DNA from: a virus
Taxonomy: Duplodnaviria > Heunggongvirae > Uroviricota > Caudoviricetes
DNA length: 34,807 bases
Reading direction: 5' to 3' (one strand)
Virus record (IMG/VR): IMGVR_UViG_2526164649_000022
Shown here one piece after another: positions 2,289-34,807 of this stretch (positions are counted from its first letter, which is position 1; every line of letters starts with the position of its first letter). A program made the position numbers and the translations under genes. The notes beneath the pieces were generated by a model that was not told where the DNA came from, made no database searches, and saw only the letters and a program-made list of their open reading frames with translations.

Positions 2289-2919
2289 GGGCAAATCCAC
2301 CTGGTCTGAACGCTCTCACCTCGTCCAGTGTGGGCAACAGAGAAAGTTGTTCTTTCATCTCCCGCTGACAGCGATAAATCTCATCGTTGCGCTCAACAAT
2401 GGCCTGTATCATCGCTGTGGCCAGTTCCTCAAGTTCCTGCGTCGTCAGCTGCACCTGCTGATTATCCGCATCACTCCACGTCATATTTGTTTGTGCCGCG
2501 ACAGATTTTGCCAGCATGACTACCGGGGACAGGCGGCCCAGTGAGTCGGGGCCAGCATTCCAGATACGACCGTTCCATTCAAACGTGAACGGCTTCGCCT
2601 CCTGTTCTGTGCGCCATGCTTCAATTTCCTGACGTCTGGCCTCTCTGGCCGCTTCCAGCATTTCTGGTGTCACAGTGAATGGGGCTATCTCACCCCATTT
2701 GCCACTTTGCAGTTCCTGCCAGATTCGCTGACCCGTCGGTGCGACATCATCAGCGGTGGCTGTGTAGGGGACTGCCTGGTCCCTGTCGTCAAAAAAAACG
2801 TCACAGTCTACTGCGCCACTTTCGGTATAACGGGGATTAATGATTTTTTTAATTTCCACGGTGCATTCCTCACGATGTGCGAATAAAAAGCCCGGGCATT
2901 GCGCCAGAGACATGAGCAT
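2122..2919 (-). CDS. Phage tail-module protein (putative second tail-fibre assembly/chaperone-like); phage-derived part is 2300-2919; C-terminus replaced by read-through into IS2
   Basis: Position directly downstream of a tail-fibre gene; removing IS2 and one duplication copy restores ...RAFRPGD followed by TAA. A GTG start at 2859 with a GAGGA Shine-Dalgarno is plausible instead of the ATG at 2919. Confidence 0.5.
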
Positions 2920-3223
2920 CCGGCACCCCGGACAGGGCGCAATATGACCCCGGTAATGAATGCTCTGAACATCCCGTAATGAAAAATTGTGGGGATGCTA
3001 TATACGTTCCGGTGGGAGTACTGGGCACTGAAATCCCCACCGGTCCCAGTCGTGAGCCTCTGTATGACTGCCCCCTGACAAGTCTGATGACTTTATCACC
3101 GTCAGCTTCTCCCTGGTACGCAGCAATAATCAGCCCGCCAATGTCAGGGTCTCCCCATCTGTTGCGGACAGAGCTCGCCACGATTCTGTAAATAATATCT
3201 TCTGTGGTTATATTTATTTTCAC
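2870..3223 (-). CDS. Hypothetical small protein between tail fibre and assembly-like gene
   Basis: 117-aa ORF whose GTG start overlaps the stop of the upstream fibre gene (GTGA); no recognisable domain. Confidence 0.3.
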   Translation of the reverse strand: MKINITTEDIIYRIVASSVRNRWGDPDIGGLIIAAYQGEADGDKVIRLVRGQSYRGSRLGPVGISVPSTPTGTYIASPQFFITGCSEHSLPGSYCALSGVPDAHVSGAMPGLFIRTS

Positions 3224-4272
3224 CCAGTCAGTCTGGATATGGGCCAGTAGCAGTAGCGGGTGTGATAAATGGGGCCGTTAATGCCGTAAAAAGTAAGGGA
3301 TTTGGCTCTGTACCGCGGTTCTGTTGTCTCAGGGCGTGCATCAGTCCACCGGATGCTGAGCCCCCCTTCAAACCGTGTGTCGGGTATGATGATGCCGTAG
3401 GGGCCAGCAACGGAATATTCAACTGGCAGCGCATTCCTTACCCAGGCCAGGAAATCACTCTTAGTGTCAAAACGGATAACATCTTCAGGCAGAAAAGCAC
3501 ACCCAAAGCCGAATGCGCCGGGTATCGCCAGACGGCCTTTTGTCCGGTCGTAAATGTCGCTCTGTGCTTCCATCGTGGCCGCACTTTTCAGCCCCAGATT
3601 ATCCCGGGACTTCTGTTGTGCCTTTTCGCCTGCTGCTGCGATTTCAGACAGATGGTTAGCCGTTTTCAGAGTGCCGGTCAGCGCAGCATCAATGTCATTT
3701 TTGGCCTGCTCTGCTGCGCGGGCATAACCTGCGGCTGCCTGTGCACGCTGACCGGATAAGACGGCGTTTTTCCCTGTGCTTTTCACGTCTTCCGCTGTGG
3801 CCTTTCTGTTCTCAGCTGTGACGCTTGCATCCTGTCGGGCTTTCTCCGCAAAACGTTGTGCATCATCACGGGCCGTTGCGGCTGCCGTCACATCCTGCGC
3901 CGTCTGCCGTGCGTTTCCGGCTGCGCTCCCGGCACTCTGCTGCGCCTGTTGCGCCAGCTCTTCGAATTTCTTCAGGGATTCCGGACGCAGGTCAATATCA
4001 GTTGCGCCCAGAAAATCATTCAGCGAACCGTCCGTTGAATCTTCATAAACGCGGATGACACCGATTTCTGAAAGGCGCTGTGTGCTTTGTGTCAGGCGAA
4101 CGCTGTACACACCCGGCAGAACGGGGAAGTCATATTCCCCGTTCTGTGTGGTGACATGGCTGAAAACACTTTTCAGAATCCCTGCACGGTTGTGCATGGA
4201 GGTTAGTGTAATGGTTGCGCCGCCCAGCGGTTCTCCCGTGGGCGTTTTAATCACACCTTTAAGCTGCGGCAT
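3220..4272 (-). CDS. Tail fibre protein with lambda side-tail-fibre-like N-terminal domain
   Basis: N-terminus MPQLKGVIKTPTGEPLGGATITL...VYEDSTDGSLNDFL resembles the lambda Stf N-terminal domain, followed by an Ala/Gln-rich coiled region and a distinct C-terminal domain. Confidence 0.7.
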   Translation of the reverse strand: MPQLKGVIKTPTGEPLGGATITLTSMHNRAGILKSVFSHVTTQNGEYDFPVLPGVYSVRLTQSTQRLSEIGVIRVYEDSTDGSLNDFLGATDIDLRPESLKKFEELAQQAQQSAGSAAGNARQTAQDVTAAATARDDAQRFAEKARQDASVTAENRKATAEDVKSTGKNAVLSGQRAQAAAGYARAAEQAKNDIDAALTGTLKTANHLSEIAAAGEKAQQKSRDNLGLKSAATMEAQSDIYDRTKGRLAIPGAFGFGCAFLPEDVIRFDTKSDFLAWVRNALPVEYSVAGPYGIIIPDTRFEGGLSIRWTDARPETTEPRYRAKSLTFYGINGPIYHTRYCYWPISRLTG

Positions 4273-7998: not shown

Positions 7999-8531
7999 AC
8001 GGGCGGTGATGTATTCTCATTGTCGCCGTCCTTATGAATGTGTTCGCTGAATGATTTACCCTTGATTCTGACATCTTCAGTGAATTCACAGGGACCGACG
8101 AATTTCATTTGTTTACCGATAATATTCAGCAGTTCGTCGGCAGTGAGATTTACCGTTTTCCCTGAAAAGTCTAATTGTTCTCCTGTGATTTCAATGACGC
8201 CGTTTTCCTTCAGGGTGATGTGTGATTTGCCGTCCCGGTGATACACCCTGACATCGCCGGGGGACAGTCCTTTCGGGCGACATCGCTTGTCTTCCACCGC
8301 GATGGCAACCAGCCCGTCACGCCGTCCGCCAACGGCCAGCACAATGGCTTCAGAACCTTCCGGCGGAACGGACGTAAACCCGTAGTTCTGGAAGCGTTCC
8401 ACGTCGTCATCGGTGGCATCTGCCAGCGTCTGAATTTGCAGGTTCTGCCGTGCCAGACCGTCAGACACCAGGCGGACAACAGCGCGGTCAACCATCAGTC
8501 GCAGGCGGCGAGCAATTGCGTTTAATCCCAT
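7995..8531 (-). CDS. Baseplate assembly protein V / spike (Mu gp45-like)
   Basis: 178-aa ORF at the gpV position; gene-order inference. Confidence 0.6.
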   Translation of the reverse strand: MGLNAIARRLRLMVDRAVVRLVSDGLARQNLQIQTLADATDDDVERFQNYGFTSVPPEGSEAIVLAVGGRRDGLVAIAVEDKRCRPKGLSPGDVRVYHRDGKSHITLKENGVIEITGEQLDFSGKTVNLTADELLNIIGKQMKFVGPCEFTEDVRIKGKSFSEHIHKDGDNENTSPPV

Positions 8532-9591
8532 GTGGCCACCGCCTTTGTTTTTTCGTCTTCGCTTTCATTTCCGGCATGTCCAGTGATTCAGGCGGAACCA
8601 GCGCCAGAACCGTCATCCTCCCCTGTGCGCCATCCGTCCATGTCACCCCGGATATCAGCCAGGTGGTTTTCAGGTTCTGAATGCTGTCGTCGATATCGAC
8701 AAGGCGGTTGGTCTGCCACAGCGGGCCGCTGTCGCCCTGTTCGCGCCAGCCTGCCACCGTGATTTCCGTCGTGCGGGACTCTCCCAGCATCCGGGCTTTG
8801 TACCATTCCCCGCGCATGCTGGCCCCGCCCACGGTCAGGCTGTCTTCATTGACCAGAATGCGCGGGCGGTAACGGTTAATTTCCGGGTCTTCGGTGATGT
8901 ACTGGCGACCGCCCACCATCGGGGCAGGCTGGCTGTCCCACAGTTTGCCACCGGCACTGGTGGTGCCCTTGATGATGTACTGGCTGTTACGCTCCCGCCA
9001 GCTGAAGCGCCCACGGGCGGCGAGGATATTTTTTCCCAGCACCAGTGACACGCCCGCGCGAACGGAAGAGGCGCGGGTGATAATCAGGTTACCCGCGCCG
9101 TCAGACGTCAGCAGAACGCCGCGCTGTTTTGCCAGCCGGTCGAGCAGTTCAAAGCCCGTTTCACCCTGTTCCAGAACGACAGACGCAAATGCCTCCCCGG
9201 TCGGGGTTTCCGTGATGACGGTTATCCCGAACGGGCGGCAGACATCAGCCGCCACCTGTTCAAGCCGCACGCCTTTCCATTTCCCGGACGAATGCACCAC
9301 AGAGCAGTCCACCAGGTCGCCGGTTTTATCGCGCCCCATGACGCGAATCTCCAAGTTTTCAGCGTCATAGCCGGGAATAAAATCATCGATATACCCCGTC
9401 AGCACGGTATCCGCGCCCAGCCTGACCGTGCAGGGTTGCCCCTCACGAATCACGCGCGGTGCCGCCGCTGACCAGCGGGTTGTCACACTGAGTTCAAACT
9501 CACCGGCAATCGCCTTCAGGGAACGGCTGACGGACATTTCCGTCCAGCCTTCCCACAGTTTGCCGTCAACGGTAAGAATCACGGATTCCAT
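8488..9591 (-). CDS. Tail/baseplate hub protein (Mu P, gp44-like)
   Basis: 367-aa ORF between N-like and V-like genes. Confidence 0.6.
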   Translation of the reverse strand: MESVILTVDGKLWEGWTEMSVSRSLKAIAGEFELSVTTRWSAAAPRVIREGQPCTVRLGADTVLTGYIDDFIPGYDAENLEIRVMGRDKTGDLVDCSVVHSSGKWKGVRLEQVAADVCRPFGITVITETPTGEAFASVVLEQGETGFELLDRLAKQRGVLLTSDGAGNLIITRASSVRAGVSLVLGKNILAARGRFSWRERNSQYIIKGTTSAGGKLWDSQPAPMVGGRQYITEDPEINRYRPRILVNEDSLTVGGASMRGEWYKARMLGESRTTEITVAGWREQGDSGPLWQTNRLVDIDDSIQNLKTTWLISGVTWTDGAQGRMTVLALVPPESLDMPEMKAKTKKQRRWPHGIKRNCSPPATDG

Positions 9592-10865
9592 CAGTCGGTG
9601 ATCTCCACAGGTTGCGTCGGCAGGATGAATGACGGATGACGCAGGCGGTTACGCTGCACGATTTCATCCCGTCGGCGTGTGTCACCATGCTCGCGCCATG
9701 CCAGCAATGCGGCAGAGGTGGTTGTGGTCAGCGTCACCTGCCGGGTTTCCGGCAGACGGGCGGCACGCTCGCGGGCATCCGTAATCACGGCCTGCCGTAA
9801 ATCGCGCAGCGTTCGCCACAATGTCCGCTGGTTGTTTTCCACCGCCGCCACCGCCTGCTCATGCAGTTCAGCCGCCAGCGTGTCACCGGCAGATAACGCC
9901 GCATCACGGGTATCGAACGTCATCGAGGCCACGGCACTGGCCTGTCCCAGCAGGGCTCCCAGCACAACCACCTGGCGGAAGTCGTCAATGTTCTTTTGCA
10001 GGCTGTCAGATACCGGCTGATAATCCGGTGACAGCCCGATGGCAAAGCCGGGGTTGCCGTCTGCCACGCTGCCGGGCTTCACGGTGATATCTTCCGGCAG
10101 TGCGCCGGTGGCAATCTGCCTGGCACGTTCTCCGGCCCACTGGTTGCGTAATGTCGTGTAAACCGCCAGTGCTTCGGGTGGTTCCGTCACAAGGCCCGCA
10201 ATATCTTCCACCCGTGCTGACAGCTCACTGACCAGACGCCCCGGTGTGGCAATGAGGGTTCCGGCCATCGCCTTAAAATGCTTCAGCCTGTCCATCCACT
10301 GATTCAGTGCTGCCGGTAACGTGGGCAGGTTAGCCACAAGGTTTTCCATATCGGCCAGAAAACTGTCGGCCATGTCACCCAGCCCGTCGAGTGCGCCGAA
10401 CCAGTCGCCATCGTCAATGGCGGCTTTCACCGCATCAATGCCTGTCAGCACTTCCTGCTGCGTGTTATCCGCCGCAGACGGGAACAGGCGCTCGCCTGCC
10501 TCAAACACTTCAAAGGTGACATACGCAATGCCGTCTTCCTCCGTGCAGAGGCGATGGGTGACCTTGCCAACCTGTACGGTCTGTATCCCGAACCACGGGT
10601 GGACAAGCTCGCCGGGGCCGGGGGTATTGAGCGCATCTAAAAGGGCGTTTAAATCATCCCGGAAGTTTTTACCTGGCAGCTTTGCGTTAATCTGCTGTTG
10701 CCCCGGAACGGCCCCGTTATCATCCGTCCAGGCGGTTTCACGCCGGGGATAAGCACGGGGAATGGCACGACGACCACCGGTGCCCTCCGTATCCACCAGA
10801 AAGAAGGGGACGCCACGAAACGAGGCGTCGCGCAGCCCGTCCCATTTACCGTTGCTCGTTGTCAT
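9591..10865 (-). CDS. DNA circulation protein N-like (Mu gp43-like)
   Basis: 424-aa ORF immediately downstream of the tape measure gene with overlapping start/stop. Confidence 0.6.
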   Translation of the reverse strand: MTTSNGKWDGLRDASFRGVPFFLVDTEGTGGRRAIPRAYPRRETAWTDDNGAVPGQQQINAKLPGKNFRDDLNALLDALNTPGPGELVHPWFGIQTVQVGKVTHRLCTEEDGIAYVTFEVFEAGERLFPSAADNTQQEVLTGIDAVKAAIDDGDWFGALDGLGDMADSFLADMENLVANLPTLPAALNQWMDRLKHFKAMAGTLIATPGRLVSELSARVEDIAGLVTEPPEALAVYTTLRNQWAGERARQIATGALPEDITVKPGSVADGNPGFAIGLSPDYQPVSDSLQKNIDDFRQVVVLGALLGQASAVASMTFDTRDAALSAGDTLAAELHEQAVAAVENNQRTLWRTLRDLRQAVITDARERAARLPETRQVTLTTTTSAALLAWREHGDTRRRDEIVQRNRLRHPSFILPTQPVEITD

Positions 10866-12685
10866 TAACCCTGCTCCACGCTGGTGACGCCAGCCTGCGC
10901 ACTGAGTCTGACGCCGGGTTGATCCACTCTGACGCTTTTCACGCGGGCATCACCTTCCACCACCACACGGATTTCCCCCTGCAATTGTTGCGGAAGGAAA
11001 GGATAATTCTGTGTGGGTTGCATACCTGCCCACGGTCGCGGGTCGGCAATGTTCTTGTCACCCAGCGAATTAAACCAGTCCGTTACCTTACGCCAGACGG
11101 ACTCGAGCGCTTTCTGGTTATCCTGGCTTTGTTGAGCGAACTCGCGCTCCCACGGGCTGGCGCTGGCATCACCGGCAACGAATTTTGTAAGGCTGTCAAC
11201 CTCACCTGGTAGGGCATATTGCGTGGTCAGAAAATCGTAAAACTCCAGAGCACCGGCAATGATGCCAGCGCCTTTACCTGCCTTTCCTCCACAGTTACCC
11301 GAACCTCGTGGATTGCGTGGGTTACGGGGATTGCGCGATGAATCCGGCGCATCCGGCAGACCGCCGGTATTACCCTTCAGCCCGCCACTGCCCATATTGA
11401 CCACATAAACCGGCATCACGCCGGAACCAAAAACATCCGTAATGCTGCCGGGTATCCCTTTGCCTTTCCCTTTGGGATTCATGATGTCGTGGATGGTTTT
11501 ACCGAACCTGTACGTCTTTCTGATGGCGATAATGCCGCCCAGCGCCGCCATATATTTACCGACCTGCAACCAGTTCTGGACAGTGTTCTGGTCCACGCTG
11601 TTAATGGCATCCGCCAGATCCTGAACGGGCTTTGCCAGTTGCCCTTCAGCGAAACGTTGCCATTCGTTATTCAGCGACTGCATCGCGGCATTAAAGCCTT
11701 CGGCATTGGTCTGTGCGGCCTTTTGCGTGGAACCCTGTTCAGCCATGCCGTAAATCATTTTCTCCAGCAATTGCCGGTTCTCCGGGCTGAGTAACGCCTT
11801 AATCCCCTGCATCCCGGTCTGATCAAACACATCCTGAAGTTTCAGCGGGTCGTATTTAGCCCGTTTGAGGATTTCCATCATCAGTTCATAGGGCTTTTTA
11901 ATGTCTTTTGTGCCTTTGACAAAAACGTCAACCCCGTTTTTTTTCAGGAACTCAATGTTCTTTTTGTCCGACAGGGAGGCATACATGGCCTGAATACTGG
12001 TCACTGTCTCATCAATGCTGCCTTTGTTTTTGGCAAACACCTGAGCAAATGCCCCCATCTGCGCAATGGCTTCCGGTCCCTGATCCTGAATGATGGAAAA
12101 CAGTTTCGGGGCCGCGCGGGCAACATCAGCAACGCTGACAGAACCCACCGCGAACTGTGCATACAACCTGTCCATTGTGTTGCTGACCGCATCAGCGCCC
12201 CGGACACCTTTTTCCCAGAACTGCGCCATCATCCCGGCTGCCACCTGTCCGTCAACACCAAACGCCTGCATAAACAGCCCCATGTTGCGCAGGTTGTCCA
12301 CCACATACTGATAATCACCGGTTTTTCCCAGCAGGGCATCAACCCCTTCACCGAGGGCTGAGGCATCAATACGGATATCCTTCTGACTGGAAACGTCCCG
12401 GATCGCGTTCTTCAGCGTGTTGACCTGCTCTGCGTTTAATTTGGCATTGGTTCCCATACGCCGCATCTGAGCATCAAAATCAGCCACGCCTTTTACCGTC
12501 ATGCTGCCACCAAGCTCGGCAATCATCGCCGTGTAGCGGTTGCCAAGCGCATCCAGACTGCGCCCAGCGGCGTCGGTTGTGGCTTTGACCAGGCGCATGG
12601 CTTTCTGGTTATTCCGGGCGAACTGCGACATATTCGCGCCATACTGCCGGGCTTTGGCGGTCAGGTTCCCGGCAAGGTTGATCAT
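10865..12685 (-). CDS. Tail tape measure protein, apparently intact, start MINLAGNLTAK at 12685
   Basis: About 606 aa, Ala/Gly/Gln-rich with Gly-rich C-terminal segment; the track ORF (to 12847) is extended by read-through from the IS600 end. Confidence 0.75.
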   Translation of the reverse strand: MINLAGNLTAKARQYGANMSQFARNNQKAMRLVKATTDAAGRSLDALGNRYTAMIAELGGSMTVKGVADFDAQMRRMGTNAKLNAEQVNTLKNAIRDVSSQKDIRIDASALGEGVDALLGKTGDYQYVVDNLRNMGLFMQAFGVDGQVAAGMMAQFWEKGVRGADAVSNTMDRLYAQFAVGSVSVADVARAAPKLFSIIQDQGPEAIAQMGAFAQVFAKNKGSIDETVTSIQAMYASLSDKKNIEFLKKNGVDVFVKGTKDIKKPYELMMEILKRAKYDPLKLQDVFDQTGMQGIKALLSPENRQLLEKMIYGMAEQGSTQKAAQTNAEGFNAAMQSLNNEWQRFAEGQLAKPVQDLADAINSVDQNTVQNWLQVGKYMAALGGIIAIRKTYRFGKTIHDIMNPKGKGKGIPGSITDVFGSGVMPVYVVNMGSGGLKGNTGGLPDAPDSSRNPRNPRNPRGSGNCGGKAGKGAGIIAGALEFYDFLTTQYALPGEVDSLTKFVAGDASASPWEREFAQQSQDNQKALESVWRKVTDWFNSLGDKNIADPRPWAGMQPTQNYPFLPQQLQGEIRVVVEGDARVKSVRVDQPGVRLSAQAGVTSVEQG

Positions 12686-12752
12686 GATTTCCGTGCTGAG
12701 ACGGCTACCTGAGGTGTACTGGCAATAGCGGACACTACCATTTGTTCTTTTT

Positions 12753-13571
12753 TTAAGCAGCCATCTGATGATATTTTTCCCTGAAGGCTGCCGGGGAGAT
12801 ATTCCCCAGACGAGAGTGACGACGCTGACGATTGTAGAAAATCTCAATGTATTCCCGTATTACTGAGATGGCTTCATCCCGGTTATTAAAACGATAGTGG
12901 CTCAGGCTCTCATTTTTCAGCGTTCCCCAGAAGCTTTCCATCGGAGCGTTGTCGTAACAGTTACCTTTACGCGACATTGATGTTTTCAGACCAGACTGCT
13001 CCTGTATGACCCGGTAATCGTATGCGCAGTACTGTGAACCTCGATCAGAGTGGTGGATTAGCCCGGCAGGTGGGCGCTGGCTCCTGAGCGCCATAAACAG
13101 GGCTTTACCTGTCAGCTCTTTTGTCATGCGCTCTCCCATGGCGTAGCCGACAATTTCACACGTATAAACATCTTTGATGCCAGCGAGGTACAACCATCCC
13201 TCCTGTGTGGCAACATACGTCAGGTCCGCCACCCAGACCTGATTTGGTGCTGTAGGAGCGAACGTCTGGTTCAGCAGATTTGGCGCAACTGGCAGATTGT
13301 GGTTCGGGTTCGTAGTCGCTCTGAACTTGCGTTTCTGCTTACAGCGTAGCCTTAGCTCCTTACGAAGACGTGCCAGTCGGTCACGACCAACGATGATGCC
13401 ATTCTCTGCCAGCTCCGTCTGGAGCCGCCGGGTTCCATATGTTTCGCGAGTGCGGATATGTGCCACCTTAATCTCCAGTTTTAGCCGCTCATCACTTTGT
13501 TTTCTGTCTGAGGGTTCATGCTGTACCCAGTTGTAATAACCGCTCCTGGATACACCAAATACCTGACACAT
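12753..13571 (-). CDS. IS600 transposase OrfB (DDE integrase domain)
   Basis: 272-aa ORF with IS3-family integrase features, downstream of OrfA. Confidence 0.9.
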   Translation of the reverse strand: MCQVFGVSRSGYYNWVQHEPSDRKQSDERLKLEIKVAHIRTRETYGTRRLQTELAENGIIVGRDRLARLRKELRLRCKQKRKFRATTNPNHNLPVAPNLLNQTFAPTAPNQVWVADLTYVATQEGWLYLAGIKDVYTCEIVGYAMGERMTKELTGKALFMALRSQRPPAGLIHHSDRGSQYCAYDYRVIQEQSGLKTSMSRKGNCYDNAPMESFWGTLKNESLSHYRFNNRDEAISVIREYIEIFYNRQRRHSRLGNISPAAFREKYHQMAA

Positions 13572-13606
13572 CGCTTCAATGGGAAATTGTTGTCGCCATT
13601 GTTCGA

Positions 13607-13909
13607 TTAACGCGTATTTTTCAGCGACTCCTGTGCAAAATACGCTGTTGCTTTTTTTAATATATCTCGCTCAAGGCGAGCTTCATTTAACGCCTTACGC
13701 AGTTGCAGAATTTCAGATTCCAGTTCAGCCACCGTGCGGGAACCAGGAGTACCGAGCCCTTTTCTGGCGGCGGTAACCCATTGTCCTAAAGTGCCTTCAG
13801 GAAGGGATAATCGGGAAGCGCCTTCACTGATCGAAAGTTGATTTTCAAGAACCGTTCTGACAGCTTCGGCTTTGAACTCTTTAGAGTAACGTTGGGTTTT
13901 TCTGCTCAT
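13607..13909 (-). CDS. IS600 transposase OrfA (HTH/leucine zipper)
   Basis: 100-aa ORF MSRKTQRYSKEFKAEAVRTVLENQLSISEGA..., typical IS3-family OrfA. Confidence 0.9.
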   Translation of the reverse strand: MSRKTQRYSKEFKAEAVRTVLENQLSISEGASRLSLPEGTLGQWVTAARKGLGTPGSRTVAELESEILQLRKALNEARLERDILKKATAYFAQESLKNTR

Positions 13910-13965
13910 TATTAGCTCCTTCTGATGCCATTCTATTTCAGGAAGGAGTGTCCGTTAAACTCAGG

Positions 13966-14181
13966 CTACCTCAACCTGTTGCCATACTGTTTCTCCAGTT
14001 GCTTTATCAGGCGGAACAACTGCCGCAGGGGCAGTTGTTCCAGGTACTGAATGCTGAATCGCGAAGACAGGTTAACCAGCAGGTTCATCAGTGCCGCCGC
14101 CAGCGGCATCAGTTCGCCCCCGCGTTGCCACCTCCTCAAGCATGTCATCCAGCACAGCCGCTTTCGTGCTGATAAGCTCAA
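13966..14181 (-). CDS. Frameshift extension frame of the tail assembly chaperone (G-T-like); last two codons and stop lie in the IS600 terminus
   Basis: ORF overlapping the 3' end of the chaperone gene in another frame, with a G5 run (C5 on plus strand, 14117-14121) at the overlap. Confidence 0.45.
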   Translation of the reverse strand: MSLSARKRLCWMTCLRRWQRGGELMPLAAALMNLLVNLSSRFSIQYLEQLPLRQLFRLIKQLEKQYGNRLR

Positions 14182-14467
14182 GGTCTGCCGGGTGGAGCAT
14201 TCGCAGCTGTTTCATGTCCAGCGGGCCGGGGATATTACCGATTGACGCAACCTGACGGCGCATCATCTCCAGTCCCATCAGCACCTCAGAACAGTAGGCC
14301 ACCGCCTTTCCGTTCCCGCCCATGACGACGCGTTCTGCGGCCAGTTGCGCATCAATCACATCACTGGCGGTCAGTTCGCGCAGTTTCACGGTTTTATGCA
14401 GGGTTTCATCTGCCGTGCCTTTGCCGGTCAGAAGCCCGTGTTTCAGTTCAAATTCCATTGCGGCCAT
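14072..14467 (-). CDS. Tail assembly chaperone (Mu gp41-like)
   Basis: 131-aa ORF between tail tube and tape measure, the conserved chaperone position. Confidence 0.6.
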   Translation of the reverse strand: MAAMEFELKHGLLTGKGTADETLHKTVKLRELTASDVIDAQLAAERVVMGGNGKAVAYCSEVLMGLEMMRRQVASIGNIPGPLDMKQLRMLHPADLELISTKAAVLDDMLEEVATRGRTDAAGGGTDEPAG

Positions 14468-14468
14468 G

Positions 14469-14825
14469 TCACACCTTCACGCATTTTTCACCGATAAAGT
14501 TGGCACTGATGGTGCCGGAATCCTCGTCCAGCTCTGCCGGGTTATCCGTGGCGGAACCCGTCATCATGTAGTTCAGGCCGTTGTCGCCGTAGAACATCAC
14601 CGTGACATCTTCCCAGCTGCTGATTTCAATCACGTCCATATCCGCTGCCGCCGCAATGGTTACCTTGATGGACGGCGAGGCCATCTTGCTGGAGATACCC
14701 CAGACCTTGCCGCCGCCCATATGCTGGGTGCGGCTGAAGCCGCCCGGATTCAGCGTGGATTTCCCCTCGGTTTTAATTTCGCGGCCATTCACGCGAATGG
14801 TCGCCATGCCAAGAATTTTTGCCAT
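14469..14825 (-). CDS. Tail tube protein (Mu M-like)
   Basis: 118-aa ORF immediately downstream of the sheath gene. Confidence 0.65.
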   Translation of the reverse strand: MAKILGMATIRVNGREIKTEGKSTLNPGGFSRTQHMGGGKVWGISSKMASPSIKVTIAAAADMDVIEISSWEDVTVMFYGDNGLNYMMTGSATDNPAELDEDSGTISANFIGEKCVKV

Positions 14826-14834
14826 GTGGCCCCC

Positions 14835-16310
14835 TTAAAGCTTGAACTGAATCAGGCCTGCCAGCACACGCAACTGGTTCACCAGATTCGGGTGGCAGAT
14901 AAAGTTCAGGCGGTTTTTATCGCTGCTGTCGCGTGTCACCTGAAGCGTGTCCCTGTAATCGCTGAAGTTTTCCACAAGGCCCGCCGGGAGAAGTTCGGTC
15001 TGGCAGATATCCAGCAGCTCTGCAGTGCACAGCTTCGGCGTCATCACCGGCTGCCCCGCATCCAGCGAGTCCAGCACGTCATCATCCGCCAGCTTGTGGC
15101 GCGGATAACGGTTCGAGAAACGGTTTTTAATGATGTAACGGATACGGCCCAGCGTGGCGGGTGACTGCACATCAAGATACGACACATCCGCATCACCGTA
15201 CTGGTTAACCCAGTACATGGTGATTTCACGCTCGATGCAGACGTTATCCCCGGCGTCCACCATGTGCGTGGCAATGCCGTCATGCAGCAGCAGGTTACGT
15301 TCCGGCATATCCCAGCGAACATTACGCGCAGGCGGCAGAATGCCGGTCAGGACCAGCGTCTGAAGCGGACGCGCCGGGTCAATGGCAAGGTGATACGCTG
15401 CCGTTGCGCCGTATGACGCGGCCCACATCCACGCCGGATGCGGCGACAGGTTGGTGCCGATGCAGCTAATCAGCCAGTCATTGCGGGTTTCACCAAACGT
15501 GCCGGTTTCCCCGTGCGTGCCACGAAACGCCGTCCACAGCTGCGCTTCCATCATTTTGAGCGGCCCCCAGCGGTTCAGCAGTTCATCACGCAGGGTGTTC
15601 AGGCTTTTCGTGTCGGTGAACGGGGCGATGATATCGGTAAACCACTCCGGGCCGATGGCCGCAACGGCGTCTGCCATTTCCGGTGTCCCGGTGCCGCCGG
15701 TAAACGCGGTTGCGGTCACCTTCACACCTGCCGGGAAGGCTTCACCGGTGTGGTAGTTCAGGCGAACGTCGGCACCGTTGCCGGTGACGCCGTGCCAGTT
15801 CACGGTCAGCTCCACGGTATCCGTGGCATCATCCTTCACCGCAGCGGCCACCTGCGTGGCAGGCTTTTTCGTCACCGCATCAGCAATGGCTTTTGCAATG
15901 TTTTCCTTCGTATCCCCGGCGCTCACGCTCACCTGAACGGACACACCGTTAATCAGCAGTGCCACCGTTCCGGCTTCGGTCGCTGTACCCAGCACGGTCA
16001 GCGTGGCTTTTGCGGCAGCGCCTTCAGGAGCGGCAACCGGCATCGCCCAAGTTTCCGTGTACGTGTTGGCACGACGCAGCATTTTGAGCATTTCAGCCAG
16101 CATCGACCCTTTGCCATAAAGCTGGTCTGCCTGGCTGTCACTGGTGATACGGGTCAGTGACAGGGCGTCTGCGCTGCCGGACGATACCGCATGGCCCATG
16201 ACCAGAATTTTTCGGCTTTGCGCGGATGCACCCTCCAGTGCCTGTGAATTGTCGATATCGATCCAGACAAGCGGGACGCGGATATCATCAGGAATGGAAC
16301 CCAGCGACAT
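14835..16310 (-). CDS. Tail sheath protein (Mu L-like)
   Basis: 491-aa ORF, size and position of contractile tail sheath. Confidence 0.8.
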   Translation of the reverse strand: MSLGSIPDDIRVPLVWIDIDNSQALEGASAQSRKILVMGHAVSSGSADALSLTRITSDSQADQLYGKGSMLAEMLKMLRRANTYTETWAMPVAAPEGAAAKATLTVLGTATEAGTVALLINGVSVQVSVSAGDTKENIAKAIADAVTKKPATQVAAAVKDDATDTVELTVNWHGVTGNGADVRLNYHTGEAFPAGVKVTATAFTGGTGTPEMADAVAAIGPEWFTDIIAPFTDTKSLNTLRDELLNRWGPLKMMEAQLWTAFRGTHGETGTFGETRNDWLISCIGTNLSPHPAWMWAASYGATAAYHLAIDPARPLQTLVLTGILPPARNVRWDMPERNLLLHDGIATHMVDAGDNVCIEREITMYWVNQYGDADVSYLDVQSPATLGRIRYIIKNRFSNRYPRHKLADDDVLDSLDAGQPVMTPKLCTAELLDICQTELLPAGLVENFSDYRDTLQVTRDSSDKNRLNFICHPNLVNQLRVLAGLIQFKL

Positions 16311-20315: not shown

Positions 20316-20364
20316 GTCAGTCTCCGTCGTCTGGGGTTACCGACGGTCAGTATGCGGAAGGCAG

Positions 20365-20390
20365 AAAAAAAGCCGGATTTACCGGCTTCA
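20365..20390 (-). terminator. Putative intrinsic terminator between F-like and I-like genes
   Basis: Minus strand reads AAGCCGG-TAAAT-CCGGCTT followed by a T run; identical 26-bp element recurs at 27916-27941. Confidence 0.5.
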
Positions 20391-20529
20391 CTGAAAACGG
20401 GGAAATACCCCCTTCAAAACCCCTTCAAAAACGCCACGGACGCTTCAAAAAAGCCAGGGTGTACATTCATGCCATCAGAATAAAAAACGCGTTTCTGATG
20501 CGTTTCAGGGGCATTTACGGCGGGGAGGG

Positions 20530-27860: not shown

Positions 27861-27915
27861 AAAAGCACCTGTGAAGCAGATTTAAACGTGGTCTGCTTCA
27901 TGGTGCCGGAGGCAT

Positions 27916-27941
27916 AAAAAAAGCCGGATTTACCGGCTTCA
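27916..27941 (-). terminator. Putative intrinsic terminator after the Mor-family gene (end of early/middle operon), upstream of endolysin
   Basis: 7-bp stem AAGCCGG/CCGGCTT, 5-nt loop, T7 tract on the minus strand; identical to the element at 20365-20390. Confidence 0.5.
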
Positions 27942-27945
27942 TTGA

Positions 27946-28943: not shown

Positions 28944-29081
28944 TATGTCCCCCCGGATTTAAAATTAATTCGGTGTTGAATAGCTCTTTACTCATTCGAT
29001 GTAGCACATCGAGGGCGGCAACTGCCGCTACTTTATCCTGGCTGGCAATGATTTTTCGTAATTCCTCAATAATCCAGGCTG
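28921..29081 (-). pseudogene. 3' fragment of an early-region gene truncated by IS1
   Basis: The reading frame ending at 28921 continues upstream only into IS1 sequence; the phage-derived part is about 53 codons. Confidence 0.35.
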
Positions 29082-29136
29082 GGTAATGCTGCCAACTTAC
29101 TGATTTAGTGTATGATGGTGATTTTAAGGTGCTTGC

Positions 29137-29412
29137 GTGGCTTCCATTTCCATCAGATGTCCTTCCTGCTCCGCTACTGAAGGCGTGGTGCGTAACGGCA
29201 AAAGCACTGCCGGACATCAGCGCTATCTCTGCTCTCATTGCCGTAAAACATGGCAACTACAGTTCACTTACACCGCCTCTCAGCCCGGTACGCACCAGAA
29301 AATCATTGATATGGCCATGAATGGCGTCGGATGTCGCGCCAGTGCACGCATTATGGGCGTTGGCCTCAACACGGTTTTACGTCACTTAAAAAACTCAGGC
29401 CGCAGTCGGTAA
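29137..29412 (+). CDS. insA: IS1 InsA
   Basis: 91-aa [42 protein letters not shown]... matches recalled InsA. Confidence 0.9.
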
Positions 29413-29834
29413 CCTCGCGCATACAACCGGGCAGTGATGTGATTGTCTGCGCTGAAATGGACGAACATTGGGGCTACGTCGGTGCTAAATCACGTCAGCG
29501 CTGGCTGTTTTACGCGTATGACAGGATACGGAGGACGGTTGTGGCGCACGTCTTCGGTGAACGCACTCTGGCCACACTGGAGCGTCTTCTGAGCCTGCTG
29601 TCGGCCTTTGAGGTCGTGGTATGGATGACGGATGGCTGGCCGCTGTATGAATCACGCCTGAAGGGAAAGCTGCACGTTATCAGCAAGCGTTACACTCAGC
29701 GCATTGAGCGACATAATCTGAATCTGAGACAACATCTGGCAAGGCTGGGACGGAAGTCACTGTCGTTCTCAAAATCGGTGGAGCTGCATGACAAGGTCAT
29801 CGGGCATTATCTGAACATAAAACACTATCAGTAA
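29331..29834 (+). CDS. insB: IS1 InsB reading frame (expressed as InsAB' by -1 frameshift)
   Basis: ORF overlapping the insA 3' end and ending ...[15 protein letters not shown], as in IS1. Confidence 0.85.
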
Positions 29835-29880
29835 GTTGGAGTCATTACCCGGATTTTGACGTTCATTGTCAGCGTTCCTT

Positions 29881-31445: not shown

Positions 31446-33273
31446 TCAGGCCAGCGGATCATCTTCTTCCTGCATGGCAAAAAGTTTTTGCATCCCCAGC
31501 CGGAAATCGCGTTCAAATTCTTCGTCATGCTCTTCTTCATATTCCGGTTGCTGAACTGCCACCACATTACCAACCGGGCGATAAACATTACTCAGCCAGG
31601 GTTCAGCCTGTTTGTGTTCCAGAATCTGAATACCTTCATCTTCAGCATCACGAATTTTTTCCTCAGCGCGTTTGCGCATTCCTTTAATACGCTGCTGTTG
31701 TTTGTGATATTCAGCACTGACAGCAAAGGCTGCGCGTTTATTGCCGTTCCATATCGCCTCACAGATAAAGCTGCCGTCCTTGCGACGTACCGTAATTCGC
31801 TCGGCGTCATGAATGTCATAACTGATAAGCACTTTGCGACCGTGTTCGTCACGCAACTCCGGCGCGTAGTAAATATTGTTCAGCCACTGAATTTCGCAGC
31901 GTCTTACCGGTCGTTCCACCATTGGGCGGAACATGTCGCGCAGCTCAAGATCACTCAGCCACTCAATTTCGGTGTCTTCTTCTGCCAGGCGTTTTTTCTG
32001 AACTCTGTCGGGCTGTAATGCCGTCCGTTCGGTTTCATCGGCAGCTCAGAATGCGGGCGGTTGTTGTACCATTCCACGCCTTCACGAATAGCCTCAATAA
32101 GCTCCGCCCACGATGGCAGCTCGCGCATTGCCGCTTTCTGGCGGTCGTTCAGAGGCTTGTCCTGTTGCAGGGCGTTAAACGCTGAACGCAGATCACGGTT
32201 AAGTACACGCAACGATTCCCGGTCAGCACCCTTGCCAAAATAGGTGCGATACCTCCTGGCTATACGCATCGGCAGTGTCCGGTTCAGGCGTTCAATAATG
32301 CCGCGTCCCTGTGGATTACCGGCAATACCGGTAGGGTGTTTAATCCCCAGGCGTGGCAGAATACCCACGACCTCTTTGTCCAGCATGTCAGCCGTTTCAC
32401 CGGAACCGTTATCCGAGTAATACAGGAACGGTTTTCCGTGGTTGCGAATGCCGTGCTGTATCGCACCGGCAACGGCGAACACGTTTTCGGCAAGGTCAAG
32501 ACTCCAGCCAACAACAAACCGTGTTCCACCATCGATCACAAACGTGACTTCCGGTGAGAATGGACGCCCGTGGATCGGATGCGCACATTTCAGCTTCATA
32601 CCGTGACCGTCACCAATCCAGACATAATTCACCGGCATAGCTGTCCAGTCGCGGCGGGTGAATCCTTCAAGCTGACGGTATTCACTGCCGGTAACGCGCC
32701 CTTTTTGTTTCACCACTTCCGGCAGTTTTTTCATGGCATACCGGACAACATCATAGGAAGGCATCACCTCCAGCATGTACGGTTCGTCCGCATGGCGACG
32801 CTGCCATTCTGCGACAAAATCCTCGTAGGCTTCTGACATGGGTCTGCCGTTCACCTGGCGATACTGCGCCAGAAATTCAGGCAGCCAGCTGATTTCTTCC
32901 GGTTTTATTTCGTCGCGTTTTCCCGGTGCCAGTAACAGCAGCCGTTCGGCGGCGTTCTGCGACTGGTTGTATTTCAGAACCCACTGGTAAAGTGGATCGC
33001 GGCTGATAGTACGATTAGCGCCACGTTTTGCATTGGCGTTAACTGCGGCCTGTTGCAGGCGCTCCGGCAGCTCACCTTTACGGGCTTTTTCAACAAGAAA
33101 GTTAATGGCTTTCAGTCGCCCGAGGTTACCGGCGCTTTCCAGCTTCAGCACTTCCACCACCAGCGCAGCTCTTGCTTCAGATACCCAGCGCTGGTTTTCG
33201 GTCAGCGCATTCAGGCGTTCTTCCATCAGTTGTGGAGAACCGCGATATGCTTCGATTGCCTGGACAGCGTCAG
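31446..33273 (-). pseudogene. A: Mu A-like DDE transposase, central and C-terminal parts, frameshifted in a T6 run (31992-31997) and severed from its N-terminus by IS600
   Basis: ORFs 31955-33322 and 31446-31934 align to consecutive MuA regions in different frames (...VWIGDGHG... catalytic core; ...NNIYY...DGSFICEA domain III). Confidence 0.8.
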
Positions 33274-33337
33274 TGAGGTAGCCTGAGTTTAACGGACACT
33301 CCTTCCTGAAATAGAATGGCATCAGAAGGAGCTAATA

Positions 33338-33640
33338 ATGAGCAGAAAAACCCAACGTTACTCTAAAGAGTTCAAAGCCGAAGCTGTCAGAACGGTTCTT
33401 GAAAATCAACTTTCGATCAGTGAAGGCGCTTCCCGATTATTCCTTCCTGAAGGCACTTTAGGACAATGGGTTACCGCCGCCAGAAAAGGGCTCGGTACTC
33501 CTGGTTCCCGCACGGTGGCTGAACTGGAATCTGAAATTCTGCAACTGCGTAAGGCGTTAAATGAAGCTCGCCTTGAGCGAGATATATTAAAAAAAGCAAC
33601 AGCGTATTTTGCACAGGAGTCGCTGAAAAATACGCGTTAA
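33338..33640 (+). CDS. IS600 OrfA (copy 2; one Ser-to-Phe difference from copy 1)
   Basis: 100-aa ORF identical to copy 1 except SRLSLPEG to SRLFLPEG. Confidence 0.85.
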   Translation: MSRKTQRYSKEFKAEAVRTVLENQLSISEGASRLFLPEGTLGQWVTAARKGLGTPGSRTVAELESEILQLRKALNEARLERDILKKATAYFAQESLKNTR

Positions 33641-33675
33641 TCGAACAATGGCGACAACAATTTCCCATTGAAGCG

Positions 33676-34493
33676 ATGTGTCAGGTATTTGGTGTATCCA
33701 GGAGCGGTTATTACAACTGGGTACAGCATGAACCCTCAGACAGAAAACAAAGTGATGAGCGGCTAAAACTGGAGATTAAGGTGGCACATATCCGCACTCG
33801 CGAAACATATGGAACCCGGCGGCTCCAGACGGAGCTGGCAGAGAATGGCATCATCGTTGGTCGTGACCGACTGGCACGTCTTCGTAAGGAGCTAAGGCTA
33901 CGCTGTAAGCAGAAACGCAAGTTCAGAGCGACTACGAACCCGAACCACAATCTGCCAGTTGCGCCAAATCTGCTGAACCAGACGTTCGCTCCTACAGCAC
34001 CAAATCAGGTCTGGGTGGCGGACCTGACGTATGTTGCCACACAGGAGGGATGGTTGTACCTCGCTGGCATCAAAGATGTTTATACGTGCGAAATTGTCGG
34101 CTACGCCATGGGAGAGCGCATGACAAAAGAGCTGACAGGTAAAGCCCTGTTTATGGCGCTCAGGAGCCAGCGCCACCTGCCGGGCTAATCCACCACTCTG
34201 ATCGAGGTTCACAGTACTGCGCATACGATTACCGGGTCATACAGGAGCAGTCTGGTCTGAAAACATCAATGTCGCGTAAAGGTAACTGTTACGACAACGC
34301 TCCGATGGAAAGCTTCTGGGGAACGCTGAAAAATGAGAGCCTGAGCCACTATCGTTTTAATAACCGGGATGAAGCCATCTCAGTAATACGGGAATACATT
34401 GAGATTTTCTACAATCGTCAGCGTCGTCACTCTCGTCTGGGGAATATCTCCCCGGCAGCCTTCAGGGAAAAATATCATCAGATGGCTGCTTAA
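33676..34493 (+). pseudogene. IS600 OrfB (copy 2), frameshifted by a 1-bp deletion
   Basis: Copy 1 reads AGCGCCCACCTGCC, copy 2 AGCGCCACCTGCC (about 34171-34176); ORF splits into 33676-34188 and 34269-34493. Confidence 0.8.
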
Positions 34494-34536
34494 AAAAAGA
34501 ACAAATGGTAGTATCCGCTATTGCCAGTACACCTCA

Positions 34537-34807
34537 CAGGATTGCGTGTTTTTCTGGTAACAGCTTTCACTTCAGAAACATTGTTCTCTGTAGCCACCAG
34601 CTGTTCCACATAGCGTTCACGCAGTGCCTTTCGTGTTATTTCAGGCAGACAATCAATGTGGTACTCAATGGCTTTTGTGCCTTCCCGACGGCGACTAACG
34701 TCACCAAGATCACGAGAAAAACGCTGTAACGCCTGTCGGATGCCTTTTGTGGTGGCTGGCATTCCTGGTACGCCGAGCAGGTCATTTACGGTAACGTACG
34801 ACTGCAT
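34537..34807 (-). pseudogene. A: N-terminal 90 codons of the Mu A-like transposase gene, separated from the rest by IS600 copy 2
   Basis: ...GTKAIEYHIDCLPEITRKALRERY resembles the recalled MuA N-terminus (...GGKAIEYNANSLPVEAKAAL...); in frame with the 31955-33273 segment once IS600 and one duplication copy are removed; ATG at 34805-34807. Confidence 0.75.

Follow-up and report, generated by a model that had tools for sequence, protein, structure and literature searches.

IS600 belongs to the IS3 family of insertion sequences and was first described in Shigella sonnei. It is one of five insertion sequences that have expanded in all Shigella, and it is a major source of Shigella pseudogenes (PMC7373316). 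The closest described counterpart of the tail genes considered here is that of phage Mu, in which gp41, a chaperone of the Gp41_Mu family encoded between the tube and tape-measure protein (TMP) genes, has an extension in the +1/-2 frame whose end adjoins the TMP start. The Mu pair of gp41 and its extension is the functional analogue of gpG/gpGT of phage lambda. Xu, Hendrix and Duda (2004), cited in both PMC5009743 and PMC2628397, reported a -2 frameshift at the corresponding site in Mu.

We examined the same arrangement in a 34,807-nucleotide stretch of DNA from a Caudoviricetes virus (IMG/VR record IMGVR_UViG_2526164649_000022; hereafter the window), in which a copy of IS600 separates the chaperone from the TMP gene. 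Judged from the sequence, this is very probably a simple insertional knock-out, with IS600 lying in the overlap of the chaperone extension and the TMP gene of a Mu-like Shigella flexneri prophage.

Tail chaperone and its extension frame

The genes concerned lie on the minus strand in the order sheath (14835-16310), tube (14469-14825), chaperone, insertion, TMP, DNA-circularisation (Mu N-like) and baseplate genes. The chaperone ORF (14072-14467, minus strand, 131 aa), placed as in Mu between the tail tube and tape-measure genes, is assigned to the Mu gp41 family of tail assembly chaperones (Pfam Gp41_Mu, 4.1e-37; phrog_508, 2.4e-39). It contains a putative -2 frameshift site, CGG GGG CGA, at 14114-14122 on the minus strand. 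A scan of IMG/VR with the chaperone protein yielded 35 loci, and the slip motif CGGGGGCGA was invariant in all of them, including a group with chaperones only 65% identical; a scan of genome contigs with the same protein gave no match. The identical CGG GGG CGA is found in gp41 of phage Mu and in Shewanella phage MuM16-2, while Vibrio phage martha carries AGG GGG CGA at the slip site, one base off.

The extension ORF (13966-14181, 71 aa) is in the +1/-2 frame relative to the chaperone, and the part that would be used after the shift runs from the slip site to the stop (13966-14122, minus strand). Translation of nine IMG/VR loci, drawn from the close group as well as the 65%-identity group, showed this frame to be open in each, and the protein it encodes is conserved from one group to the other. 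In addition, residues 12-69 of the 71 match phrog_38797 (8e-42). Since the frame is open, the protein conserved, the slip motif invariant and the family match strong, the extension is real coding sequence, and its identification as a genuine Mu-type chaperone extension with a putative -2 frameshift is well founded. The initial annotation, which had described a tail-chaperone frameshift ORF, is thus supported by the family assignment, by the relative frame and by a slip motif held in common with Mu.

The end of this frame has been altered by the element. In the window it reads ...QYGNRLR-TAG, compared with ...QYGNR-TAG in a reconstruction of the uninterrupted sequence, and the last 8 nt of the ORF, including the TAG at 13966-13968, derive from the left inverted repeat (IRL) of IS600. 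The phrog_38797 match stops at residue 69, two residues short of the end, so that the family profile does not cover the final LR. The claim that IS600 had struck the stop codon of this ORF was accordingly borne out, and the frameshifted chaperone product would gain two C-terminal residues (LR). The locus departs from Mu in one respect: in Mu, 19 nt separate the end of the extension from the TMP ATG, whereas here the extension and TMP genes overlap by 14 nt, so that a single insertion hits both. It illustrates both a Mu-type -2 frameshift extension overlapping a TMP start and how so tight a stop/start overlap lets one insertion alter two genes.

The IS600 copy and its target site

A reading of the interval 12400-14500 identified a complete copy of IS600 (copy 1) of 1264 bp at 12710-13973 on the minus strand, sharing its direction of transcription with the tail genes and the other phage genes around it. 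Along its full length (1264/1264 nt) the block has 99.8% identity to sequences annotated in E. coli genomes as 'IS3-like element IS600 family transposase'. The left end (IRL, TGAGGTAGCC...) is at 13973 and the right end (IRR, TGAGGTGTAC...) at 12710; read on the plus strand, the element opens with TGAGGTGTAC at 12710 and closes with ...GGCTACCTCA at 13973. Its terminal inverted repeats are imperfect and start with TGAGG, and its junctions are GGT followed by TGAGGTAGCC and CACCTCA followed by GGTAGCCGT. It encodes orfA (13607-13909, minus strand, 100 aa; HTH_Tnp_1, 1.5e-20), which carries an A7G slip motif at 13651-13658, and an intact orfB (12753-13571, minus strand, 272 aa; rve integrase core, 8.8e-26) in the -1 frame relative to orfA. 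In its nucleotide identity, its orfA/orfB frames with A7G, its TGAGG ends and its 3-bp duplication the element agrees with IS600 as a member of the IS3 family, and we found no difference in the element itself; the insertion site alone is particular. Neither the element nor its mechanism offers anything new.

The trinucleotide ACC is present on both sides of the element, at 12707-12709 beside IRR and at 13974-13976 beside IRL. Its minus-strand form, GGT, makes up the duplicated and the original codon 4, respectively, of the TMP gene, and the copy at 13974-13976 also supplies the extension frame with the last bases of AGG and the T of the old TAG. The initial annotation had called for the pre-insertion sequence to be reconstructed and compared with uninterrupted prophages. 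Removal of copy 1 and one ACC gave a 1634-nt query, which matched E. coli VL40 (NZ_CM177011.1) as one ungapped alignment over 1634/1634 nt at 99.6% identity; copy 1 is absent from this otherwise near-identical site. The rebuilt site was also matched in 45 other E. coli genomes at 90-99% identity. Since an uninterrupted empty site exists in VL40, the ACC repeat is a true 3-bp target-site duplication, and the IS600 copy with its ACC duplication was correctly recognized from the outset.

The target is the 14-nt stop/start overlap ATGGCAACAGGTAG of the extension ORF and the TMP gene. IS600 transposed into this overlap, duplicating GGT (ACC on the plus strand), and copy 1 now sits between codon 4, the triplet that was duplicated, and codon 5 of the TMP gene.

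The start of the tape-measure gene

The TMP ORF of the window matches phrog_973, 'tail length tape measure protein' (3e-135), and its homologues are annotated as TMP both in E. coli and in Mu-like phages of Vibrio and Shewanella; a Pfam search of the ORF gave no match. The initial annotation took the TMP gene to start at the ATG at 12685, 24 bp from the element, and to be intact. On that account IS600 would be an intergenic insertion that clips the stop of the extension and has transcriptional separation of the TMP gene as its sole effect. In its favor, the ATG at 12685 does open an uninterrupted frame of 606 codons, and a protein of precisely these 606 aa (WP_000609001.1) is called in NCBI records of S. 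flexneri. However, the comparison with homologues makes it extremely improbable.

Uninterrupted relatives start elsewhere. The PGAP annotation of these genomes gives a TMP of 618 aa (616 in STEC388) that starts MATG[SN]RLSTEIMINLAG, and among the matches listed 109 of 120 homologous proteins have the MATG start, 106 of them with [SN]RLSTEIMINLAG; the rest are mostly partial. This start is the ATG equivalent to 13985-13983 of the window, which in the reconstruction lies 33 nt upstream of the ATG at 12685, within GGAGAAACAGTATGGCAACAGGTAGCC, and overlaps the last 14 nt of the extension ORF. It is preceded at a distance of 7 nt by a GGAG ribosome-binding site (13993-13996, minus strand), and both ATG and GGAG are invariant in 24/24 unique close DNA sequences. 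The ATG at 12685, 24 nt from IS600, is codon 12 of this longer gene and is itself variable: among the same 24 sequences it is ATG in 21, CTG in 2 (Leu; L005 and L006) and CAG in one (Gln; L004). Two 607-aa forms beginning MINLAG are present in the database. The one that was looked up (P0046) begins 3 nt from a contig end, and it was ruled out as support for the inner start on that ground.

From the extension stop to the inner ATG there are 19 nt, which would be a spacer if the gene began at 12685 but which likewise prove to be coding. In the comparison that included L004, L005 and L006, the differences between the two ATGs were synonymous ones at third positions. Third-codon positions account for 6 of the 7 variable sites in codons 5-11 among the 24 sequences, a pattern like that of the undisputed TMP coding region downstream (21/31), which shows that this stretch is coding. 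Profile evidence agrees, as phrog_23801 aligns to the 606-aa ORF only from profile position 12 and so begins 11 positions before it. An exhaustive HMMER search of 50%-identity representatives recovered distant homologues of 28-56% identity whose alignments open at residues 2-6 of their own sequence and residues 4-9 of the query. Their N-termini follow M-x-x-L-x-T-x-[IV]-[IVL]-x-[ND]-L-x-G-N-L, with I, V or L at the position of Met12 in the window. In Vibrio phage martha 12B12 and Shewanella phage MuM16-2 the annotated TMP begins 2 residues into the long form. The Mu TMP, gp42, is too diverged from the one studied here for tblastn, and its N-terminus, MTGKRLKASVIIDLNGNL, is the only recognizable part, with the same motif and a residue of the I/V/L class at the codon-12 position. 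By this sequence comparison the true TMP start is the upstream MATG, not 12685. Because the homologues start 33 nt further upstream, and hence upstream of 12710, the insertion falls inside the TMP coding sequence; a start so placed is what the initial annotation had itself named as refuting its reading.

The 606-aa call itself is tied to the element. We retrieved three of the four contigs that carry WP_000609001.1 (S. flexneri AKMV01, UGYT01 and QWTC01), and all three loci carry the IS junction. Two have the chaperone, IS600 and the 606-aa ORF with junctions identical to those in the window, and the third breaks inside IS600 with an identical right junction; a 7.8-kb stretch of AKMV01000036 is 100% identical to the window. 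One IMG/VR prophage contig likewise carries the identical IS600/TMP junction, while no sequence spanning it was found among 5426 complete E. coli RefSeq genomes. The 606-aa call is best read as a gene-caller fallback, and the case shows how picking the first ATG after an insertion leads to a false call of an intact gene. WP_000609001.1, now named 'phage tail protein', should be corrected to a 5'-truncated remnant of a 617/618-aa TMP and flagged as disrupted.

Measured against the native start, the TMP gene is not intact, as its start and ribosome-binding site (13985-13996) are no longer joined to the body, which begins at 12709. What remains upstream is a stranded 5' stub (13971-13985, minus strand) that reads ATG GCA ACA GGT (13985-13974) and then TGA, the first three bases of IS600 (13973-13971), and so encodes MATG-stop. 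The decapitated body (10865-12709, minus strand) consists of the duplicated codon 4, codons 5-617 and the stop in an open frame, without a start or ribosome-binding site of its own. In all, the ribosome-binding site and codons 1-4 are parted from the remaining 613 codons by 1267 bp. The frame of the body runs back into IS600 as far as a TTG at 12847, and within this interval neither ATG nor GTG occurs in frame ahead of codon 12 (12685-12683), which is therefore the first in-frame ATG and has only a weak GGA four bases upstream. Since codon 12 has a poor Shine-Dalgarno sequence and lacks translational coupling, TMP synthesis would be abolished or strongly reduced.

Expression across the insertion and state of the prophage

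We also considered what transcription of the tail operon may remain. It had been proposed that the downstream tail genes would depend on read-through or on an outward-facing IS promoter; the first part is reasonable, but the second found no support. A consensus scan of 12500-14600 gave a single promoter-like site on the gene strand, a sigma-70-like TTAACG-17-TAGAAT (13930-13958, minus strand; consensus match only) inside IRL and upstream of orfA, which is presumably IS600's own predicted promoter. The same scan detected no outward-facing promoter at the IRR end, the end facing the TMP gene, where the initial annotation had suggested promoter prediction. By eye, TTGCCA in IRR lacks a usable -10 at 16-18 nt in the flank. 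Because IS600 has the orientation of the operon and no intrinsic terminator was predicted on the minus strand within 12500-14600, transcription from the late promoter or the IS promoter can probably read through the element. The untranslated 1.8-kb TMP message would in turn favor Rho-dependent polarity on the downstream baseplate genes, and such polarity is possible.

Read-through transcripts might still allow a TMP 11 residues shorter to form and keep some function. If initiation at codon 12 were efficient enough, the lesion would be leaky and the tail module functional with a TMP that lacks residues 1-11. The shared orientation and the lack of a predicted terminator are consistent with this, as is the preservation of the TMP body and most head and tail genes, which are full-length and 97-100% identical to those of VL40. 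However, codon 12 has a weak Shine-Dalgarno sequence and is no longer coupled to an upstream ORF. The 11 N-terminal residues that such a product would miss include the L-x-T-x-I motif, which is conserved down to 28% identity. Moreover, with the tail fibre frameshifted, an IS2-like insertion present and the transposase doubly broken, no viable phage is expected, and we regard a functional tail module as very unlikely.

A further possibility concerns the choice of site. The target contains AGGTAGCC, which equals nt 3-10 of the IS600 left end, and targeting of sequences that mimic the element's own ends has been described for some IS3-family elements. This similarity was noted post hoc, and 1.9% of random 50-nt windows equal it. 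Combined with the predicted IS600 promoter, it could be built into a scenario in which the element chose an end-mimicking site and its promoter drives constitutive low-level transcription of the tail module in a repressed prophage, with translation from codon 12; we consider this scenario highly unlikely. A simple knock-out of the TMP gene remains our reading.

The question of expression is largely moot, because the transposase and tail-fibre genes of the prophage are also broken. A second IS600 copy (33274-34536, plus strand, 1263 bp) is inverted relative to copy 1, from which it also differs at three substituted positions and in a 1-bp deletion that cuts orfB short. It lies between codons 90 and 91 of a MuA-like transposase gene that is also frameshifted near 32000. 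It is flanked by its own CAG duplication (33271-33273 and 34537-34539), and its empty site was matched as well. An inversion between the two inverted copies was ruled out, as each retains its own matching duplication. Comparison with VL40 further revealed a 1.33-kb IS2-like insertion (~970-2299) at the end of a DUF4376 gene of the tail-fibre region and, near 3226-3232, a tail-fibre gene broken into two frames. We infer that the prophage can neither make tails nor transpose, and that the insertion in the TMP gene is one step in the IS-driven prophage decay typical of Shigella.

The closest relative is the sister prophage of E. coli VL40 (NZ_CM177011.1, 3.66-3.70 Mb), which is 98-99.8% identical at the nucleotide level over nearly the whole window and shares its gene order from mom to the transposase gene. 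It differs in lacking both IS600 copies, the IS2-like insertion and the frameshifts in the tail-fibre and transposase genes, and in having another 3.2-kb segment in the early region. Megablast of the rebuilt empty site against the phage collection gave no match. No sequenced phage isolate is close to the prophage; at the protein level, those that come nearest are Vibrio phage martha and Shewanella phage MuM16-2 (50-54%). A search of the literature turned up no relevant account of an IS600 insertion in this TMP gene.

Taken as a whole, the insertion is ordinary IS-driven pseudogenisation of a structural gene in an already-defective prophage. The decay of Shigella genomes and prophages through IS600 is well documented, and this is one more case of it. 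The pattern resembles the pseudogenisation described for Shigella by Hawkey et al. 2020 (PMC7373316), in that an expanded insertion sequence has inactivated a dispensable gene in several isolates. It differs in that the target here is a prophage structural gene rather than a metabolic one, with no evident functional or adaptive consequence.

The two IS600 copies

Two inverted IS600 copies (12710-13973 and 33274-34536) enclose 19.3 kb of the prophage. We considered an inversion between them and ruled it out, since each copy retains its own matching 3-bp duplication. In the second copy, orfB has lost 1 bp from a CCC run; in the S. flexneri assembly UGYT01, it is instead the IS600 copy at the tape-measure site that has a split orfB, which suggests gene conversion or a recurrent indel.

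The reconstructed target of the first copy (13974-13981 joined to 12700-12709, that is, with the element and one ACC removed) includes AGGTAGCC, the same sequence as nt 3-10 at the left end of IS600. An equally good match to an IS end occurred in only 1.9% of random 50-nt windows, but this likeness was spotted post hoc. The target of the second copy has no comparable likeness to an IS600 end.

Disrupted and divergent genes

The MuA-like transposase gene (31449-34807) is broken twice. One break is the second IS600 copy, which lies between codons 90 and 91; its empty site gives a one-piece match to VL40, an E. coli sister prophage free of the IS insertions. The other, at about position 32000, is a change of frame around residue 510-516.

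Comparison with VL40 also showed that the sister prophage lacks a 1.33-kb IS2-like element present at 970-2299 (orfA, 1015-1425; orfB, 1383-2288; HTH_Tnp_1 and rve domains). The insertion site is the 3′ end of a DUF4376 gene of the tail-fibre region, and the ORF of this gene (2122-2919) now continues into the element. The tail-fibre gene (2870-4272) is a single 468-aa ORF in VL40 but occupies two frames in the window (350 aa and 117 aa), with the change near 3226-3232, and is probably a frameshift pseudogene.

The gp44-like baseplate hub gene (8488-9591) encodes 367 aa in the window and in S. flexneri AKMV01, and 356 aa in VL40 and UGYT01. The two forms diverge at the C-terminal end, past residue 350, probably as a result of a small indel. 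In the early region, VL40 lacks a counterpart of the 0.9-kb segment at 28947-29849 and has in its place a different 3.2-kb segment with Gam and several small ORFs; this difference may represent a mosaic replacement or a deletion.

A terminator-like repeat

A 42-nt repeat, 90% identical between its two copies (20353-20394 and 27904-27945), is terminator-like on the minus strand, where a GC hairpin is followed by T7. One copy precedes the protease (Mu I-like) gene and the other the lysozyme gene, each by approximately 40 nt. The repeat may mark operon boundaries, because its two positions correspond to those occupied in Mu by the late promoters PI and Plys.
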